Source: Candidatus Edwardsbacteria bacterium (GTDB lineage: Bacteria; Edwardsbacteria; AC1; EtOH8). From it: DNA of 64,000 nucleotides. The position numbers and the translations under genes are program-made. The DNA lies in the NCBI GenBank assembly GCA_020053305.1, contig JAGVNJ010000074.1, positions 7,348 through 71,347 on the forward strand. Direction: 5' to 3'. The notes under the pieces were generated by a model. It ran no database searches. It saw nothing but the letters and a program-made list of their open reading frames with translations, and was not told the DNA's origin. Below, one piece after another: positions 6,638 through 63,227 of the stretch. Within the stretch, counting starts at the first letter, position 1; each line of letters begins with the position of its first letter.

Positions 6638-7664
6638 GCAGGCGGATACTCAAGCCAAGATCACGTTTTATGGCACCAAGCAGGGCATAGAATCGCGGGT
6701 GCTACCGGGGATGGGCTATGATCTCAAATATATTTCTGCCAAGGGATTTTTGGGTAAAGGCTGGACAGACAAAATATTTTCCCCTCTCTGGATGGCAGCT
6801 GGCGTCTGGCAATCGCTCTTTTATATGGCCAGGAACCGCCCGGATGTGGTTCTGGGCACCGGCGGTTACGTTTCGGCCCCCCCGGTGGTGGCGGCCTGGA
6901 TGTTAAGAATCCCGGTATCCCTGCTGGCCCTGGATGTGATGCCCAGTCAAGCGGTGCGGTTCCTGGCCAGGTTTGCCGATCAGATATACGGCGGTTTTCC
7001 GGAATGCGCCCGGCACCTAATCCCCAAGTCCCAGGTGATATTCACCGGAAATCCCATCAGGCCGGAGATCGGAAGAATAACCAGAGGCCAGGGGGCGGTC
7101 CGGTTCGGGCTGGAAGAAAACAAAAAGACCATCCTGATATCCGGCGGGAGCCAGGGAGCCCACAGCATCAATATTTCGGTGCTGGATTCTTTGAAGATAC
7201 TCGATCAGGTCGGAAGGCTTAAGGAAATCCAGATAATATTTCAGACCGGCAAAAAAGATCATGGCCAGGCGACGGAAGCCGTCAAACGTTTTGCAACAAA
7301 AATAAAAGTCCTGCCCTATATCGACGAAATGCCTTACGCCCTGGCGGCCGCCGACCTGGTGATCAGCCGCTCCGGGGCCGGGATTTCGGAAACCCTGGCC
7401 TGCGGCCTGCCCTCGATACTGATACCGTATCCTTATGCCGCCAGCAATCACCAGGAATACAATGCCAAAAGTCTGGAAAAAGTCGGTGCAGCAGAAATGA
7501 TATTGGACAAGGATATGAACGGGCAAGTGTTGGCGGAAAAAATCACTAAAATTCTATTCGACCAGGACAGATATCACCAAATGGCCATCGCCTCCAAATC
7601 CCTGGCCCGGCCGGAAGCAGCAGGGAAAATTGCCGAAAATTTATTAAGAATTGCGGGAAAATAA
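6564..7664 (+). CDS. murG: undecaprenyldiphospho-muramoylpentapeptide beta-N-acetylglucosaminyltransferase
   Basis: N-terminus MELAIAGGGTGGHLYPGLAVA is the canonical MurG G-loop; GT28 family. Confidence 0.9.
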   Translation: MELAIAGGGTGGHLYPGLAVAAAVKQADTQAKITFYGTKQGIESRVLPGMGYDLKYISAKGFLGKGWTDKIFSPLWMAAGVWQSLFYMARNRPDVVLGTGGYVSAPPVVAAWMLRIPVSLLALDVMPSQAVRFLARFADQIYGGFPECARHLIPKSQVIFTGNPIRPEIGRITRGQGAVRFGLEENKKTILISGGSQGAHSINISVLDSLKILDQVGRLKEIQIIFQTGKKDHGQATEAVKRFATKIKVLPYIDEMPYALAAADLVISRSGAGISETLACGLPSILIPYPYAASNHQEYNAKSLEKVGAAEMILDKDMNGQVLAEKITKILFDQDRYHQMAIASKSLARPEAAGKIAENLLRIAGK

Positions 7665-13424: not shown

Positions 13425-13515
13425 TCTTCTTTATTTGACCTCACCCCTCCGCCATTAGCAGGTGGTCCATATAGGCGGGCAAGCTGCCCCTCTTCTATTA
13501 AAACAGGAGAGGGGT
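13425..13515. repeat. gene-less copy of DUF559-module end (TTGACCTCACCCCT + CCCCTCT..AGAGGGG hairpin)
   Basis: The 14-mer TTGACCTCACCCCT is identical at 13425 and 53745. The hairpin CCCCTCT(14 nt)AGAGGGG at 13477-13504 matches those flanking the DUF559 genes. Confidence 0.5.
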
Positions 13516-13636
13516 TTTGTATGCCCGGTGGTTTGACCACCCCCGTCCCTCCCCGCAACGGAGAGGGCTTTTGTATTCCCTTCCCGAGGCGGGAAGAGGC
13601 AGGGGTTGGGTCCGTATCACCACGACCGCCAAACGA

Positions 13637-13949: not shown

Positions 13950-14026
13950 GGGTACAAAACATAGAAATCAAATTGTCATGTCCGTAAACAATTCCAAACA
14001 TAAACGTCGTTCTATCCGCCTGCCAA

Positions 14027-14076
14027 CCTCACCCATCTCCCTCTCCTAATGCTTTAGGAGAGGGAGATGGGTGAGG
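14027..14076. repeat. 50-nt perfect hairpin (23-bp stem) of the CCTCACCC..CCCTCTCC family, inserted at RAYT 5' end
   Basis: CCTCACCCATCTCCCTCTCCTAA-tgct-TTAGGAGAGGGAGATGGGTGAGG. A TAA inside the right arm terminates the in-frame upstream RAYT reading frame. Confidence 0.75.
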
Positions 14077-14148
14077 TAAGGGGCGTATTACATAACAATC
14101 TGCGCCCAAGACCGCAAATGTATATTTGGTGCAATCGCCGATGGGCGG

Positions 14149-14583
14149 ATGGTATTAAACCCATTCGGCGAAATTGCCCGAAACGAATGGGTTAAAACCG
14201 GCGAATTACGGCCCTATGTCATTCCGGATGTATTTGTGATTATGCCGAATCATATTCATGGAATATTGATAATAACCGATGATGACCATTGTAGGGGCAC
14301 GATGCATCGTGCCCCTACGGGTACGACCGAACGTTTTGGCAAACCTGTCGCCGGATCATTGCCGACCATCATCCGTTGTTACACCGCGGCGGTGACCCGC
14401 CAGATAAATAAATTGCGCAATACCCCGGGCCATAAAATATGGCAACGTAATTATTACGAACACATCATCCGCAACGATAAATCATACGATAAAATCAGAC
14501 AATACATCATGGAAAACCCGCTGTATTGGCCGCAGGATGAGGAAAATCCCAACCGAGCAATTCCTAAAAACGCCATATCATAA
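14149..14583 (+). CDS. REP-associated tyrosine transposase (RAYT / IS200-like HUH Y1), probably 5'-truncated
   Basis: HUH motif (IMPNHIHGILII) and a C-terminal catalytic Tyr region (NYYEHIIRNDKSYDKIRQYIMENPLYW). The first beta-strand (..AYYITICAQDRKCIFG) is encoded in-frame upstream of the ATG but is cut off by a stop inside an inserted 50-bp hairpin. Confidence 0.7.
   Translation: MVLNPFGEIARNEWVKTGELRPYVIPDVFVIMPNHIHGILIITDDDHCRGTMHRAPTGTTERFGKPVAGSLPTIIRCYTAAVTRQINKLRNTPGHKIWQRNYYEHIIRNDKSYDKIRQYIMENPLYWPQDEENPNRAIPKNAIS
14291..14318. repeat. perfect 28-nt REP-like palindrome GTAGGGGCACGATGCATCGTGCCCCTAC inside RAYT coding sequence
   Basis: Perfect palindrome. It is translated as ..HCRGTMHRAPTGT.. 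between the HUH and Tyr motifs. Confidence 0.75.
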
Positions 14584-47984: not shown

Positions 47985-48030
47985 ATCCGACCCCTCCCTG
48001 CCCTCCCCCGGTGGGAGAGGGATTGTTATT

Positions 48031-51569: not shown

Positions 51570-51969
51570 GTCATTGCGAGTATACTTCCCTGATAAACAA
51601 ATGAAGCAATCCATTTATCATGTTTGGCAAAAAATATTTTGTATATATTCTGGCCAGCAAGAAAAACGGGACTTTGTATGTCGGGGTTACAAACGATCTT
51701 AAGCGCAGGGTGGCCGAACACAGAAACGGAGTGATCCCTGGCTTTGCGAAAAGATATAAAACCTTTTTACTGGTTCATTTTGAAGCGTTTGATGAACCGA
51801 GATTTGCTATTGCTATGGAAAAGCAGTTGAAGGCCGGGTCACGGGCAAATAAAATAAGACTTGTAGAACGGGATAATCCCGATTGGCTCGATCTGTTTGA
51901 AAAGATATAATACAAAGTTGTTATTTGTGGATTGCTTCGTTAGCTATATAAAATCATTCTCGCAATGAC
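51570..51969. mobile_element. TIR-bounded GIY-YIG mini-element, copy 2
   Basis: Left end GTCATTGCGAG..(21)..GAAGCAATC (51570-51611); right end GGATTGCTTCG..(20)..TCGCAATGAC (51929-51969). Confidence 0.65.
51620..51910 (+). CDS. GIY-YIG nuclease domain protein (paralog)
   Basis: KYFVYILASKKNGTLYVGVTNDLKRRVAEH...REKQLK; divergent from copy 1 but collinear with it. Confidence 0.8.
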   Translation: MFGKKYFVYILASKKNGTLYVGVTNDLKRRVAEHRNGVIPGFAKRYKTFLLVHFEAFDEPRFAIAMEKQLKAGSRANKIRLVERDNPDWLDLFEKI

Positions 51970-53744: not shown

Positions 53745-54266
53745 TTGACCTCACCCCTGCCCCTCTCCAAAGGCATTTGGAGAGGGAGGTTGTAATGAGT
53801 AAAAGCATTTATGGCAAGTACAAAGAATTTTGGTGTCAGCACCGGCCGCCGGATCAAGAACGAAAAACTAGAAATGGCCAAACAAATGCGGCGGGAGATG
53901 ACCTATGCCGAGCGGTGTTTTTGGAACGGGGTCAGGGGCCGCAAACTGCATGGCTTGAAGTTCCGCCGCCAGCAGATCATAGACGGGTTTATAGCTGATT
54001 TCTATTGTAATGAGTTAAGGCTGATTGTTGAGATAGACGGCGGTGTTCATGAGACCCAGAAGGATTACGATAAACTGCGCGACAGGATAATCAGCCGGAA
54101 TGAAATTAAAGTGATCCGGTTTTCCAACGAGTTAGTCGTAGACCAGTTTGATACTGTGGCCAGACGTATTGGTGAACTACGTCCTCCCTCGCCAGGTTTA
54201 CCTGGAGAGAGCCTGCACCGAGATGGCCACAATAAATGACAAACGAAAGTGGGCAGGGGTGAGGTC
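53745..54266. mobile_element. DUF559 endonuclease module bounded by 16-bp inverted repeats and hairpins
   Basis: TTGACCTCACCCCTGCCC (53745-53762) and its reverse complement GGGCAGGGGTGAGGTC (54251-54266). Internal hairpins CCCCTCTCCAAAggcaTTTGGAGAGGG and CCTCCCTCgCCAGGtttaCCTGGAGAGAG sit at the two ends of the gene. Confidence 0.55.
53874..54239 (+). CDS. DUF559 (Vsr/PD-(D/E)xK-like) endonuclease domain protein
   Basis: ..AKQMRREMTYAERCFWNGVRGRKLHGLKFRRQQIIDGFIADFYCNELRLIVEIDGGVHE.. is canonical DUF559. The start is set at the internal ATG 53874; the ORF-track start is 53811. The C-terminal tail PPSPGLPGESLHRDGHNK is encoded by hairpin DNA. Confidence 0.75.
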   Translation: MAKQMRREMTYAERCFWNGVRGRKLHGLKFRRQQIIDGFIADFYCNELRLIVEIDGGVHETQKDYDKLRDRIISRNEIKVIRFSNELVVDQFDTVARRIGELRPPSPGLPGESLHRDGHNK

Positions 54267-60835: not shown

Positions 60836-61810
60836 ATGTTATCAGACCAATTCGGCAGAAAAGTGAACTACCTCCGGGTGTCGGTCACCGACCGCTGTAA
60901 CCTGCGTTGCCGCTACTGCATCCCGGCGGAAGGAGTGTCATTAAAGAAGCACGAAGACCTGCTGAGCTTCGAGGAGATAGAGACCATCGTCCGGGCGGGG
61001 GTGGGACTGGGCATCAACAAGGTCAGGCTGACCGGTGGCGAGCCTCTGTTGCGCAAGGGTTTTTCGGAGCTGGTGAAAAAACTGGCGGCCATCGAGGGTC
61101 TCGAGGACCTGGCCCTGACCACCAACGGCATTTTACTTGGAGCCATGGCCTGGGAACTGAAGAAGACCGGCATCAAGAGGGTCAACGTCAGCCTGGACAC
61201 CTTAAGGCCCGAACGTTTCAATCGGATGACCGGCAGCGACCAGTGGCAGCAGGCCAAGGAGGGGTTCGAGACGGTCCTGGCGGCAGGGTTCGAACAGGTC
61301 AAGCTGAATGTGGTGGTCATCGCCGGCTACAACGACGACGAGATCGATGATTTCGTGGAATATATCATGGTTAAAAAGGCACAACTCAGGTTCATAGAAT
61401 TCATGCCGGTGGGAAACCATCACTGGAAAAATGAAATGGTGCTGCCCTCCAAGGGGATCATCGAAAGGATCAACCAGAAGCACCATATCGTATCATTGCC
61501 GCCTCTGAAAAATTCGATCGTCGAGGAATATCAGATAGTAGGCAGCCCGGCCACGGTGGGATTCATTTCCCCCATGTCTCATTCCTTCTGCCACGGCTGC
61601 AATCGCCTGCGTTTGACCGCGGACGGCTTCCTGAAACCCTGCCTGGCCTCCAAATATGAGGTCAATATCAAGGTCCCGGTAAGGGCCGGGCACGCCGGAA
61701 ACGAACTGCGGCGGGTGTTCTACGAGGCCATGAGATTGAAGCCCAAGGCCCACAAGATGGACCAGGGGTTCTCGGACAATACCCGCCATATGGCCGAGGT
61801 GGGAGGGTGA
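60836..61810 (+). CDS. moaA: GTP 3',8-cyclase (molybdenum cofactor biosynthesis protein A)
   Basis: Radical-SAM CNLRCRYC cluster, a second C-terminal Cys cluster ([18 protein letters not shown]) and GGEPLL. Confidence 0.9.
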
Positions 61811-62322
61811 TTTTGAAAAGCAAAAATAAAAAATTAAATATTAAAAACAAACGGAGCTTGTCGCATATCGACAAAAAAGGCCAGGCCAAGATGGTGGATG
61901 TCACCAAAAAAGTTAAGACCCAGCGGACGGCCGTGGCCTCCGGCCGGGTGAAGATGAAGCCGGCCACATTGGACCTGATCGCAAAAAACAAATTGACCAA
62001 GGGCGATGTGCTGGGCGTGGCCCGGATCGCCGGCATTCAGGCGGCCAAGAGGACCCATGAGCTGATCCCGCTCTGCCACCCGCTGGCTTTGACCCAGGTG
62101 GACGTGGAATGCAAATTGGACAGGAAAAGGTCAATAGTCGAAGTGACCAGCACCGTGCGCTGCGCCGACCGCACCGGGGTGGAGATGGAGGCCCTGACCG
62201 CGGCGGCGGTGGCCTGCCTGACCATCTACGACATGGCCAAGGCGGCGGACAAGGGGATGGTGATCTCGGAGATCAAACTGCTGGTGAAACGGGGAGGGAA
62301 GAGTGGGGATTGGAAGATATGA
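61807..62322 (+). CDS. moaC: cyclic pyranopterin monophosphate synthase
   Basis: [21 protein letters not shown] and IPLCHP..L motifs. Confidence 0.9.
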
Positions 62323-62326
62323 AAGT

Positions 62327-62786
62327 CCCCTCTGGGCAAGAGGGGATTTAGGGGTGTGTTCATGAAAATCTACTACAATGCCAAACTAAAAGAGAAAGCC
62401 CGCCAGCTGCGGAATAACAGCACTAAAGCAGAGATCCGGCTTTGGCAGCATCTCAGAGGCAAAAAGGTAATGGGCTATGATTTTCACCGGCAAAAGCCGA
62501 TAGGCAATTATATTGCCGATTTTTTCTGTCCCAAATTGAATTTAGCAATAGAGGTTGACGGATACACCCATAGTTTTGAAGAGGTCGTTAAGAAGGATCA
62601 TAAAAAACAGGGCTATCTTGAGGATCTGGGTCTAACAGTTATGCGTTTTAAGGATGAAGAGGTTTTTTATGATATCGATTCGGTGTTGAATGGGATCAAG
62701 CAGTACATAATTGGACACACCCCTCGTTCCCCTCTTTGTAGAGGGGAGGAACACACCCCTAACCCCTCTTATTAGAGGGGAATAGA
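62327..62786. mobile_element. DUF559 endonuclease module with 11-bp inverted repeats and CCCCTCT/AGAGGGG hairpins
   Basis: Left end: CCCCTCTgggcaAGAGGGG followed by AGGGGTGTGTT (62350-62360). Right end: AACACACCCCT (62750-62760), flanked by CCCCTCTttgtAGAGGGG and CCCCTCTtattAGAGGGG. The stop codon lies inside the last hairpin. Confidence 0.55.
62356..62775 (+). CDS. DUF559 (Vsr/PD-(D/E)xK-like) endonuclease domain protein (paralog)
   Basis: ..AKLKEKARQLRNNSTKAEIRLWQHLRGKKVMGYDFHRQKPIGNYIADFFCPKLNLAIEVDGYTH..; the ATG at 62362 is the probable start. The C-terminal tail GHTPRSPLCRGEEHTPNPSY is encoded by hairpins. Confidence 0.75.
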   Translation: MFMKIYYNAKLKEKARQLRNNSTKAEIRLWQHLRGKKVMGYDFHRQKPIGNYIADFFCPKLNLAIEVDGYTHSFEEVVKKDHKKQGYLEDLGLTVMRFKDEEVFYDIDSVLNGIKQYIIGHTPRSPLCRGEEHTPNPSY

Positions 62787-62792
62787 AAGCAT

Positions 62793-63227
62793 ATGGGCAA
62801 AATAATTTCCATAAATATCAGCACCCATAAAGGGCAGAAGAAACATCAGATTGATTTCGCTGTCCTGAAAGAGAACCACGGGATAGAGGGCGATGCCCAT
62901 GCCGGGGACTGGCACCGCCAGGTGAGCCTTTTGGCACAGGAGAGCGTGGATAAGATGCGGGGCAAGGGAGTGGAACTGCATCCCGGGGATTTTGCCGAGA
63001 ACCTGACGGTGGAGAATATTGAACTAAGTAATTTGAAAATTGGACAAAGATTGAAAATCGGTTCGGAGGTAATTTTGGTGATAACCCAAATAGGCAAGGA
63101 GTGCCATAACGACTGCGCTATAAAACAGCAGGTGGGCGATTGCGTGATGCCGCGGGAGGGCGTGTTTGCCAGGGTGATAAAAGGCGGGGAGATCAAAACA
63201 GGCAACCAAATCAATTTTGAAATTTAA
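62793..63227 (+). CDS. MOSC domain protein
   Basis: ..HKGQKK....A.L...GIEGDAHAG.WHRQVSLLA.E.. beta-barrel with a conserved Cys (CHNDC). Confidence 0.75.
   Translation: MGKIISINISTHKGQKKHQIDFAVLKENHGIEGDAHAGDWHRQVSLLAQESVDKMRGKGVELHPGDFAENLTVENIELSNLKIGQRLKIGSEVILVITQIGKECHNDCAIKQQVGDCVMPREGVFARVIKGGEIKTGNQINFEI

Follow-up and report, generated by a model that had tools for sequence, protein, structure and literature searches.

The closest described relatives of the repeat reported here are the BoxC, PIT and TMECO elements of Escherichia coli (Bergler 1992; Hoyne & Maher 2000, 2002; Holder et al. 2015, PMC4666352). The TMECO pattern, CCCTCNCCC N3-6 GGGNGAGGG N3 GGGNGAGGG, is present in 23 copies in MG1655 without strand bias, and the copies divide into type A (second loop TTA) and type B (second loop CCG), with five inverted A+B pairs (PMC4666352). 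The motif folds into a triplex in vitro and is linked to unstable loci, and no transposase or integrase remnants are reported to have ever been found near it (PMC4666352). According to the literature cited in the same source, purine-motif triplexes cannot form in RNA. Here we report repeats of this class that enclose a gene. In a 64,000-nt stretch of contig JAGVNJ010000074.1 from a Candidatus Edwardsbacteria bacterium (positions 7,348 to 71,347; the whole stretch is hereafter the window), a gene of the DUF559 family stands between inverted units of this kind, inside a molybdenum cofactor (Moco) operon. We found that one DUF559 clade is physically and specifically coupled, across phyla, with one subfamily of triplex motifs. 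Repeats of this class and proteins of this family have each been described before; a literature search returned no publication linking DUF559 (PF04480, ycjD) to these repeats.

The arrangement resembles the partnership of RAYT genes and REPINs, where a small nuclease gene is also flanked by an inverted, short, structured repeat that is far commoner as gene-less singlets and doublets. RAYT genes are described in PMC5581495 as typically single-copy, vertically inherited and under purifying selection, traits that recur in the gene studied here. The two systems differ in the enzyme, which is a predicted PD-(D/E)XK, Vsr-like nuclease rather than an HUH Y1 (IS200-like) transposase, and in the repeat, which has no GTAG or CGTC tag and carries a triplex third strand instead. 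A further difference is that hardly any spacer separates DUF559 from the units of its doublet, and that the gene lacks its own promoter.

A Vsr-like catalytic fold is shared with the EDxHD homing endonuclease I-Bth0305I (PDB 3R3P), which places DUF559 in a family with proven homing members. Presence or absence at a conserved host site and a patchy cross-phylum occurrence are further points in common with homing endonuclease genes. Unlike these, however, DUF559 does not reside in an intron or intein, its presumed target is a repeat present in many copies and not a single conserved gene, and the window copy persists under purifying selection rather than decaying; the window protein also lacks the long N-terminal DNA-binding region of I-Bth0305I. 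With a transposon and its miniature inverted-repeat derivatives the system has in common a discrete module whose ends are inverted and structured, together with numerous short, gene-less derivatives that carry both ends and the left/right asymmetry, but it includes no member of a known transposase family and shows no target-site duplication. The subterminal hairpins of IS200/IS605 elements lie on the same strand, whereas the ends of the present module are inverted.

A DUF559 gene bounded by repeat units in many phyla

We compared the flanks of 80 metagenomic loci chosen by protein similarity alone (52-89% identity). A unit lies at most 120 nt upstream of the gene in 63 of 73 assessable loci (86%), as a hairpin followed by GGGGTGTGT, at a median of about 10 nt before the start codon. 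At the 3' end, a unit is found in 59 of 71 assessable loci (83%), mostly overlapping the last codons. Units occupy both sides in 47 of 64 loci and neither side in 3 of 64.

Pairwise comparison set the limits of the conserved segment. Many pairs are 81-95% identical over 420-500 nt in unrelated contexts, and the homology of such pairs ends exactly between T and CCCCTCT on the left and after AGAGGGG(A)A on the right, with at least 600 nt of flank available on each side. Homology is lost at these edges in L149/L158, L158/L177, L136/L158, L131/L149, L158/L193 and L153/L163 (L and P numbers are labels of compared loci and proteins), and true orthologous pairs (L146/L150, L161/L162, L136/L177) align through their flanks. 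Because homology stops at the outer hairpin edges, the gene and its two units constitute a discrete module of ~0.44 kb. An earlier inspection of the letters of the window (the sequence-only reading) had proposed an evolving element family; the units flanking most relatives on each side, together with the near-identical copies in unrelated contexts, bear this out.

The 3' units also leave a mark on the proteins. The C-terminal tails of the 120 best homologues read HTPxSPLxRGE, HTPNPSQEG or just HTP, and homologues with such tails come from Nitrospirota, Bacteroidota, Elusimicrobiota, TA06, a Rickettsiales metagenome-assembled genome (MAG) and others. All of these tails derive from one DNA sequence (CACACCCCT..CCCCTCT..AGAGGGG) that is translated in different frames, which places the conservation at the DNA level. 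Among the metagenomic relatives, neighbouring genes are mostly co-oriented with DUF559, both upstream (40/47) and downstream (45/58).

We also considered carriage of the module by phages. A set of 2.9 million viral contigs yielded 5 motif matches and no close DUF559, and this candidate was rejected since units and gene are practically missing from viral contigs.

A triplex rule links the three blocks of the unit

We refer to the CCCCTCT / AGAGGGG / GGGGTGT unit of the window module as the type-2 unit. On the purine strand it reads AGAGGGG-N3-5-GGGGTGT, and when GGGGTGT is folded back antiparallel on AGAGGGG the contacts are G.G four times, T.A, G.G and T.A. The two stem arms covary (347 CCCCTCT/AGAGGGG, 22 CCCTCCT/AGGAGGG and 1 mixed), and the third block covaries with the stem: CACACCCC accompanies 298 of the first type and CACCTCCC accompanies 21 of the 22 of the second, where GGGAGGT likewise fits AGGAGGG. 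In the protein-selected loci, a perfect 7/7 purine-motif third strand lies on exactly one side of 146 of 164 distinct hairpins, compared to 1 of 164 control positions. Judged by these base-contact rules, the unit is a purine-motif intrastrand triplex motif of the same structural class as BoxC/PIT/TMECO.

The likeness to BoxC/PIT/TMECO covers the order of parts (C-rich arm, loop, G-rich arm, short second loop, second G-rich block), the highly conserved stems with variable loops, and the intergenic, dispersed, multicopy and wide distribution without strand bias. It extends to the existence of two unit types with TTA-like and CCG-like second loops, which are always mixed in inverted pairs. The stems, however, are 7 nt long in the type-2 unit and 9 nt long (CCCTCNCCC/GGGNGAGGG) in TMECO. 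With its 7-nt blocks the type-2 unit therefore fails the literal TMECO pattern and represents a shorter-stem sequence subfamily of the same class; the unit of a second, paralogous DUF559 module in the window (module 1; CCCTCTCC/GGAGAGGG/GGGTGAGG) is closer to TMECO. Type-2 units also differ in occurring mainly in non-proteobacterial phyla, among the matches listed in the scan described next, and in having DUF559 nested between them, whereas published work on BoxC/PIT/TMECO reports no mobility gene associated with them.

Repeat units without the gene

Searching one genome per species for ACACCCCT-N1-5-CCCCTCT-N3-8-AGAGGGG gave at least 120 unit loci, and the counts given for these loci are among the matches listed. 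These loci span Nitrospirota, anammox Planctomycetota, Flavobacteriaceae, Glassbacteria, Gemmatimonadales, Ignavibacteria, Omnitrophota, Nitrospinota, Patescibacteria and others, and one genome often has more than one of them. They hold 249 units in 814 kb. There are 28 inverted pairs, with third-strand blocks facing each other across 6-37 bp; 16 units flank DUF559 genes, and 177 units fall in neither class and are mostly solo. Eleven closely spaced pairs have the opposite (R-L) order.

DUF559 is the only recurrent family among the open reading frames (ORFs) within 80 nt of a unit, with 10 members; all other clusters have at most 2. No RAYT-like ORF was found in 1.1 Mb of unit loci, and we rejected RAYT as the mobiliser of type-2 units on this ground. 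The two halves of gene-less pairs are systematically unlike, one having a second loop of 4 nt (such as TTAT/TAAT) and the other a second loop of 2-3 nt (such as CTG/CCG/GCA), and gene-bearing modules share this A/B polarity. Relative to flanking co-directional genes, unit orientation is balanced (41:47), showing no strand bias, and convergent contexts (44) outnumber divergent ones (18).

Two groups of unit loci have features of their own. At L032 4120-5140 (Nitrospirae MAG JACRHB010000216), several units lie within one continuous ferredoxin-like reading frame, recalling the in-frame insertions of Rickettsia palindromic elements. In inverted pairs from anammox Brocadiaceae/Planctomycetota (for example L019, L048, L075, L079, L106 and L108), a conserved GATTGAAATTCCT..TTAAA regularly follows after about 10 nt, which suggests a larger composite repeat or a preferred target.

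The window copy in the Moco operon

The window holds one copy with type-2 units, here called module 2, at 62326-62782 on the plus strand. Its edges (T before CCCCTCT on the left, the end of AGAGGGGAA on the right) were placed by the cross-locus homology breaks, using the boundary rule taken from the pairs of 81-95% identical modules in different contexts, and they include an extra second 3' unit. The 5' unit opens with a hairpin at 62326-62346 (pyrimidine arm (T)CCCCTCT, loop GGGCA, purine arm AGAGGGG(A)) and continues with the third-strand block AGGGGTGTGTT at 62350-62360, in which GGGGTGT (62351-57) fits the purine-motif triplex rule against AGAGGGG. The gene for a predicted DUF559 / Vsr-like PD-(D/E)XK nuclease of 137 aa follows at 62362-62775. 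The first 3' unit (62714-62747) consists of the third-strand complement GACACACCCCT, the spacer CGT and the hairpin TCCCCTCT-TTGT-AGAGGGGA. The second (62750-62782) consists of AACACACCCCT, the spacer AA and the hairpin CCCCTCT-TATT-AGAGGGG(AA); its opposite strand reads AGAGGGG-TTA-GGGGTGT. The flanking host genes, both co-oriented, are moaC (61807-62322) and the MOSC-domain gene (62793-63227), in the operon order moaA-moaC-(DUF559)-MOSC-mog.

The 64-kb window has exactly three instances of the combination CCCCTCT-loop-AGAGGGG (62327-62345, 62729-62746 and 62763-62780), and it appears in 0 of 100 shuffles. All three units fit the three-block triplex layout of pyrimidine arm, complementary purine arm and a G-rich third block that follows purine-motif triplets (G.G-C, T.A-T or A.A-T), and as single strands the hairpins fold better than 200 of 200 shuffles (z about -3.5). 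These results agree with the sequence-only reading in finding a second DUF559 module here, with one unit upstream of the 137-aa gene and two inverted units downstream, after small corrections of coordinates. That reading had also counted two downstream copies of the 11-mer AACACACCCCT. The copy at 62750-62760 is exact, and the 11-mer recurs on the minus strand at 62350-62360 (AGGGGTGTGTT on the plus strand), but the copy at 62714-62724 is GACACACCCCT, with one mismatch. The 11-mers had been taken for a terminal inverted repeat distinct from that of module 1. The repeats are present; however, they form no independent terminal repeat and instead constitute the third strand of the intrastrand-triplex motif.

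The ORF is open from GTG 62356 or ATG 62362 to 62775, and because homologues start with MKIYYN, ATG 62362 is the likely start codon. The two downstream units encode the C-terminal tail GHTPRSPLCRGEEHTPNPSY; the final ~17 residues of the protein are translated from 3' unit sequence. As had been proposed, tail and stop codon lie within the downstream hairpins, the TAG at 62773-62775 falling in the loop and 3' arm of the last one. At the other end, the AGGGG of the third-strand block lies 7 nt before the ATG and probably doubles as a ribosome-binding site, as suggested by its position and by the median distance of about 10 nt between unit and start in 65 loci. No promoter-like site was found in front of the window DUF559 gene, and moaC is probably the source of read-through transcription into it. 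The lack of an own promoter and the co-oriented upstream genes fit expression by read-through. We rejected a terminator or promoter reading of the hairpins, since they have no terminator on the plus strand and the gene is not preceded by a promoter.

Inheritance of the window copy

The close relatives of the window DUF559 protein all sit between moaC and MOSC: P0004 (85% identity; from a Candidatus Edwardsbacteria MAG), P0003 (86%), P0018 (73%; on 13 contigs) and the protein of L129 (89%). This site is occupied by DUF559 in the window, L001-L008 and L129, and it is empty in L212-L217. In L212/213, L214 and L216, MOSC directly follows moaC without DUF559, across a spacer of 136-155 nt, in agreement with the earlier claim that the module is inserted between these genes. 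L212/213 represent Candidatus Edwardsbacteria RIFOXYD12_FULL_50_11; the MOSC identity to the window is 81% there, 75% in L214 and 68% in L216.

The orthologues L001, L002, L003 and L129 keep gene and units. Stems and the GGGGTGT block are invariant in orthologues, loops differ (L001/L002/L129), and the number of 3' units varies (two in the window, three in L001, one in L003). The sequence-only reading would have been contradicted by relatives with the same gene order and unrelated flanks; what we found in L001, L002, L003-8 and L129 was the same order together with conserved repeats.

Compared to orthologues, the ratio of nonsynonymous to synonymous substitution rates (dN/dS) of DUF559 is 0.10-0.13 at dS 0.5-1.07, the same range as for moaA, moaC, MOSC and mog. 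Since DUF559 behaves like its neighbours, it has passed vertically with the operon under purifying selection. From these sequence comparisons, the module 2 copy is old, vertically inherited, under purifying selection and not recently mobile. The empty moaC-MOSC spacers hold other palindromic repeats and no intact type-2 pair. L212 and the window have the same first 13 nt past the moaC stop (AAGTCCCCTCTGGG, 5' arm of the first hairpin), which suggests secondary loss of the module in L212.

Two side observations concern the surrounding spacers. GTAG-tagged palindromes (GTAGGGGCG...CGCCC), which are different repeats from the type-2 units, fill intergenic spacers of the lineage, including the 'empty' moaC-MOSC sites. 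The MOSC-mog interval is also variable, with an AAA_15/AAA_21 ATPase in L212 (2935-4443) and an unannotated 306-aa ORF in L002 (4878-5798).

A predicted Vsr-like nuclease

The window protein matches Pfam DUF559 (PF04480) with 110.3 bits against a cut-off of 20.6 (E = 5.6e-32; profile positions 2-107 of 109) and PRK09767 with E = 9.5e-22. Its sequence matches in the PDB are 3HRL (E = 1.9e-21), the DUF559 protein NGO0050 of N. gonorrhoeae, and 3R3P (E = 1.1e-3). An AlphaFold2 model (predicted local distance difference test score 83.6) gave Foldseek matches to 3HRL with a template modelling (TM) score of 0.91, to 3R3P, the catalytic domain of I-Bth0305I, with 0.81, and to 1VSR with 0.56; the fold matches that come after 3HRL and I-Bth0305I include RAP-domain proteins, Vsr, the R2 retrotransposon endonuclease and TnsA. 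D53, E64, D66 and H70 are invariant across 25 diverse homologues. Sequence profile and modelled fold together identify the window protein as a predicted DUF559 / Vsr-like PD-(D/E)XK nuclease.

Across phyla, identity to the window protein is 57-66% in the 25-sequence alignment, and occurrence is patchy. Residues 122-133 of the tail are predicted to be disordered, and the tail and the placing of the stop codon in a hairpin are therefore best regarded as incidental. The core recognised by I-Bth0305I is pseudopalindromic (PMC3239194), which sets a precedent for symmetric sites like GGGGTGTGT...ACACACCCC as targets of Vsr-like enzymes.

ycjD and BoxC in E. coli

The DUF559 gene of E. coli K-12, ycjD, lies between fabI and sapF. 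Its stop codon is within a degenerate unit (CCCTCTCCC-TGAAAGA-GCGAGGGGG), and a BoxC/TMECO element (CCCCTCGCCCCTC-TGG-GGAGAGGG-TTA-GGGTGAGGGG) is located 167 nt downstream. YcjD and NGO0050 (3HRL) belong to the DUF559 family, as does the window protein, and ycjD resembles the window gene in ending in a (degenerate) unit and adjoining BoxC. The ycjD locus differs in having no triplex unit upstream, in the 167-nt distance to the downstream unit and in the modest identity of its product to the window protein. In Table S2 of PMC4666352, the element near ycjD is TMECO no. 9, placed between fabI and ycjD without comment; the main text of that paper mentions neither ycjD nor any endonuclease. BoxC was first described in a paper on envM (= fabI), the gene next to ycjD.

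A 55-mer of the ycjD-side BoxC element has a median of 18 occurrences per E. coli genome. Of 5426 complete genomes, 3378 carry ycjD, as a single copy, and 38% lack it. Among genomes sampled at even spacing, the 37 with ycjD have a median of 18 BoxC-like places (range 10-24) and the 23 without it a median of 9 (1-18; p = 4e-9), a contrast that phylogroup confounds and that is therefore suggestive only. The fabI-sapF site holds ycjD in phylogroups A/B1/C and eefRABCD in other groups (PMC12817139).

Two further repeats were noticed at this locus. About 45 nt of the ycjD 3' end (GGAGACGGTGCTGGAGAATATTC...) are duplicated about 110 nt downstream, between the gene and BoxC (L242, K-12 1351150-1351480), and shortly before the ycjD start there is a perfect 17-bp palindrome (TCACCTCATTCTGACAA).

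Explanations for the coupling

Several mechanisms could join a nuclease gene to a pair of triplex motifs. The comparisons support well that 62326-62782 is one fixed copy of a discrete, widespread selfish module, with the nuclease gene nested between inverted copies of a short G+C-rich triplex repeat. By a modest preference, we explain it by a nuclease that would act on its own motifs. The enzyme would recognise its flanking motifs, either folded or as a pseudo-palindromic pair, and would cut at or beside them. The break could then be repaired by copying from a gene-bearing copy, a homing-like gene conversion in which units of ~30 bp would serve as homology, or the module could move by cut-and-insert. 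The gene would thereby spread into motif sites and help to keep the motif population uniform. Having no promoter of its own, it would depend on read-through from an upstream host gene (here moaC) and would use the AGGGG of the third-strand block for ribosome binding, while the tail of the protein and the position of its stop codon in a hairpin would be incidental read-through of the 3' units. We infer the action on the motifs, and the spread by copying or cut-and-insert, from sequence comparison.

A number of results weigh against a selfish module. No target-site duplication (direct repeat) is present at nine module pairs or at the window copy, and no recent insertion polymorphism of the gene-bearing module was found among the loci compared. 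The window copy itself is old and stable, and the 64-kb window contains no further strict type-2 unit, which leaves few visible substrates near the nuclease. DUF559 is next to only about 6% of the units, and no single DUF559 subclade accounts cleanly for the variant-stem units. Module 1 is mirrored relative to module 2, so there is no single fixed DUF559 architecture, and phylogroup enters the E. coli copy-number contrast as described above. The predicted binding and cutting of the motifs by DUF559 is itself derived from genomic association.

More tentatively, and with less than even confidence, we propose a broader role in which DUF559 proteins, including YcjD, would be the missing partner nucleases of BoxC/PIT/TM repeats. 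They would then define a new class of prokaryotic mobile or self-maintaining elements whose ends are recognised via folded DNA (triplex or hairpin) and whose sole protein is a Vsr-like nuclease. Such a partnership would be a second one of the RAYT/REPIN kind, evolved independently. BoxC repeats have been known in E. coli since 1992, form triplexes and mark unstable loci, and DUF559 is their first candidate partner enzyme. DUF559, in turn, is a very large Vsr-like family, and its nesting between inverted triplex motifs, from candidate phyla to ycjD-BoxC, connects the two puzzles. The question becomes testable in a model organism through E. coli YcjD and BoxC. If the proposal is true, a structure-recognising partnership of nuclease and repeat would stand beside RAYT/REPIN, and hundreds of thousands of spurious peptide tails of the 'HTPLSPLxRGE' type would come under an annotation rule.

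It is unlikely, though worth weighing at length, that DUF559 moves nothing and is a domesticated, structure-specific repair or maintenance nuclease for repeat hairpins or triplexes that can stall replication. The linkage of gene and motif would then reflect functional coupling, and new contexts would arise via motif-mediated recombination and horizontal transfer. Vertical inheritance at a fixed site, strong purifying selection (dN/dS 0.10-0.13) and the lack of a target-site duplication at the module ends are what such a gene would show, and so are the apparently single copy per genome in E. coli and Marinoscillum species and the presence of the repair enzyme Vsr among the relatives of the window protein. 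A repair gene, however, does not need to be bounded base for base by the motifs, nor does it need the A/B polarity of the gene-less pairs. DUF559 is dispensable in close relatives and in the E. coli genomes that lack ycjD, and the 57-66% similarity across phyla with patchy occurrence fits the transfer of a selfish unit.

We give still less credence to the repeats being mobilised by another agent (a RAYT-type HUH transposase or host replication and recombination) with DUF559 as a passenger, or to DUF559 being a free-standing homing endonuclease that parasitises existing pairs; the pure-homing variant overlaps with the selfish module. About 94% of units have no DUF559 nearby, and about a quarter of inverted pairs hold the gene, as homing with many targets would lead one to expect. 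The window also contains a RAYT-like ORF (14080-14583) beside a 24+24-nt palindrome whose arms resemble module-1 units. Against another mobiliser, neither a RAYT-like ORF nor any recurrent family but DUF559 is found beside type-2 units in 0.8-1.1 Mb, and the units lack the GTAG/CGTC tags of RAYT-associated repetitive extragenic palindromes. Were DUF559 a mere passenger, other cargo would be expected as well, and the gene would not take up the whole pair, starting at the first base after GGGGTGTGT and reaching ACACACCCCT.

Finally, an RNA-level role of the hairpins as signals of the Moco operon (terminators, processing or stabilising elements), with the likeness elsewhere convergent or due to chance, is highly improbable because, although they fold stably (z about -3.5), are located between genes transcribed together and extend into the start and stop regions of the ORF, they have no T-tract terminator on the plus strand, no Rfam family at the gathering threshold anywhere in the window (with chance-level matches around the module), balanced orientation relative to transcription (41:47), a third block that covaries with the stems by a DNA-only purine-motif triplex rule, identical counterparts in hundreds of unrelated loci and phyla, and kinship with PIT elements, for which PMC4666352 cites Hoyne & Maher as reporting neither promoter nor terminator activity.

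Module 1 and other repeats in the window

The paralogous DUF559 module 1 lies at 53747-54266 on the plus strand (ORF 53811-54239), between argS and a methyltransferase gene, and is orthologous in L209-L211, which have the same argS-DUF559-methyltransferase order. Its protein is 36% identical to that of module 2. A perfect 16-nt inverted repeat, GACCTCACCCCTGCCC, occurs at 53747-62 and 54251-66, and a hairpin at 53761-86. The sequence-only reading had described two paralogous modules with a conserved hairpin architecture. The units are of a related type, but the layout is mirrored: the third-strand blocks face outward in module 1 and face the gene in module 2, so that the unit type is shared and the layout is not. 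P0135 (151 aa), which is 62% identical to the module 1 protein, is not encoded in the window and is probably the product of a third DUF559 gene on the source contig.

The RAYT-like ORF at 14080-14583 matches NF047646 (E = 2.4e-14, below cut-off) and PDB 4ER8 (E = 1.3e-3). Its frame can be followed back to 14080, immediately behind a stop codon that is part of a perfect 24+24-nt palindrome at 14026-14077, and the gene has probably been 5'-truncated by this palindrome repeat. Third-strand-like blocks flank the palindrome on both sides (ACCTCACCC...GGGTGAGGT). More triplex-type units like those of module 1 occur at 13435-13570, at 47985-48021 and in the moaC-MOSC spacers of L212/L214/L216 (e.g. 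GACCCCTCCCTGCCCTCCCC-loop-GGAGAGGG).

Between rsfS and argS, the segment 51570-51969 contains a gene for a 96-aa GIY-YIG nuclease (ORF 51620-51910 on the plus strand; Pfam E = 1.2e-15) in a two-tier inverted repeat, GTCATTGCGAG / CTCGCAATGAC and GAAGCAATCCA / TGGATTGCTTC, and the same module is present in L209 and L210. The window therefore has three small stand-alone nuclease genes in 12 kb, each with private inverted repeats and co-oriented between housekeeping genes. The GIY-YIG gene in its own repeats hints that a small nuclease with private repeats is perhaps a general theme.

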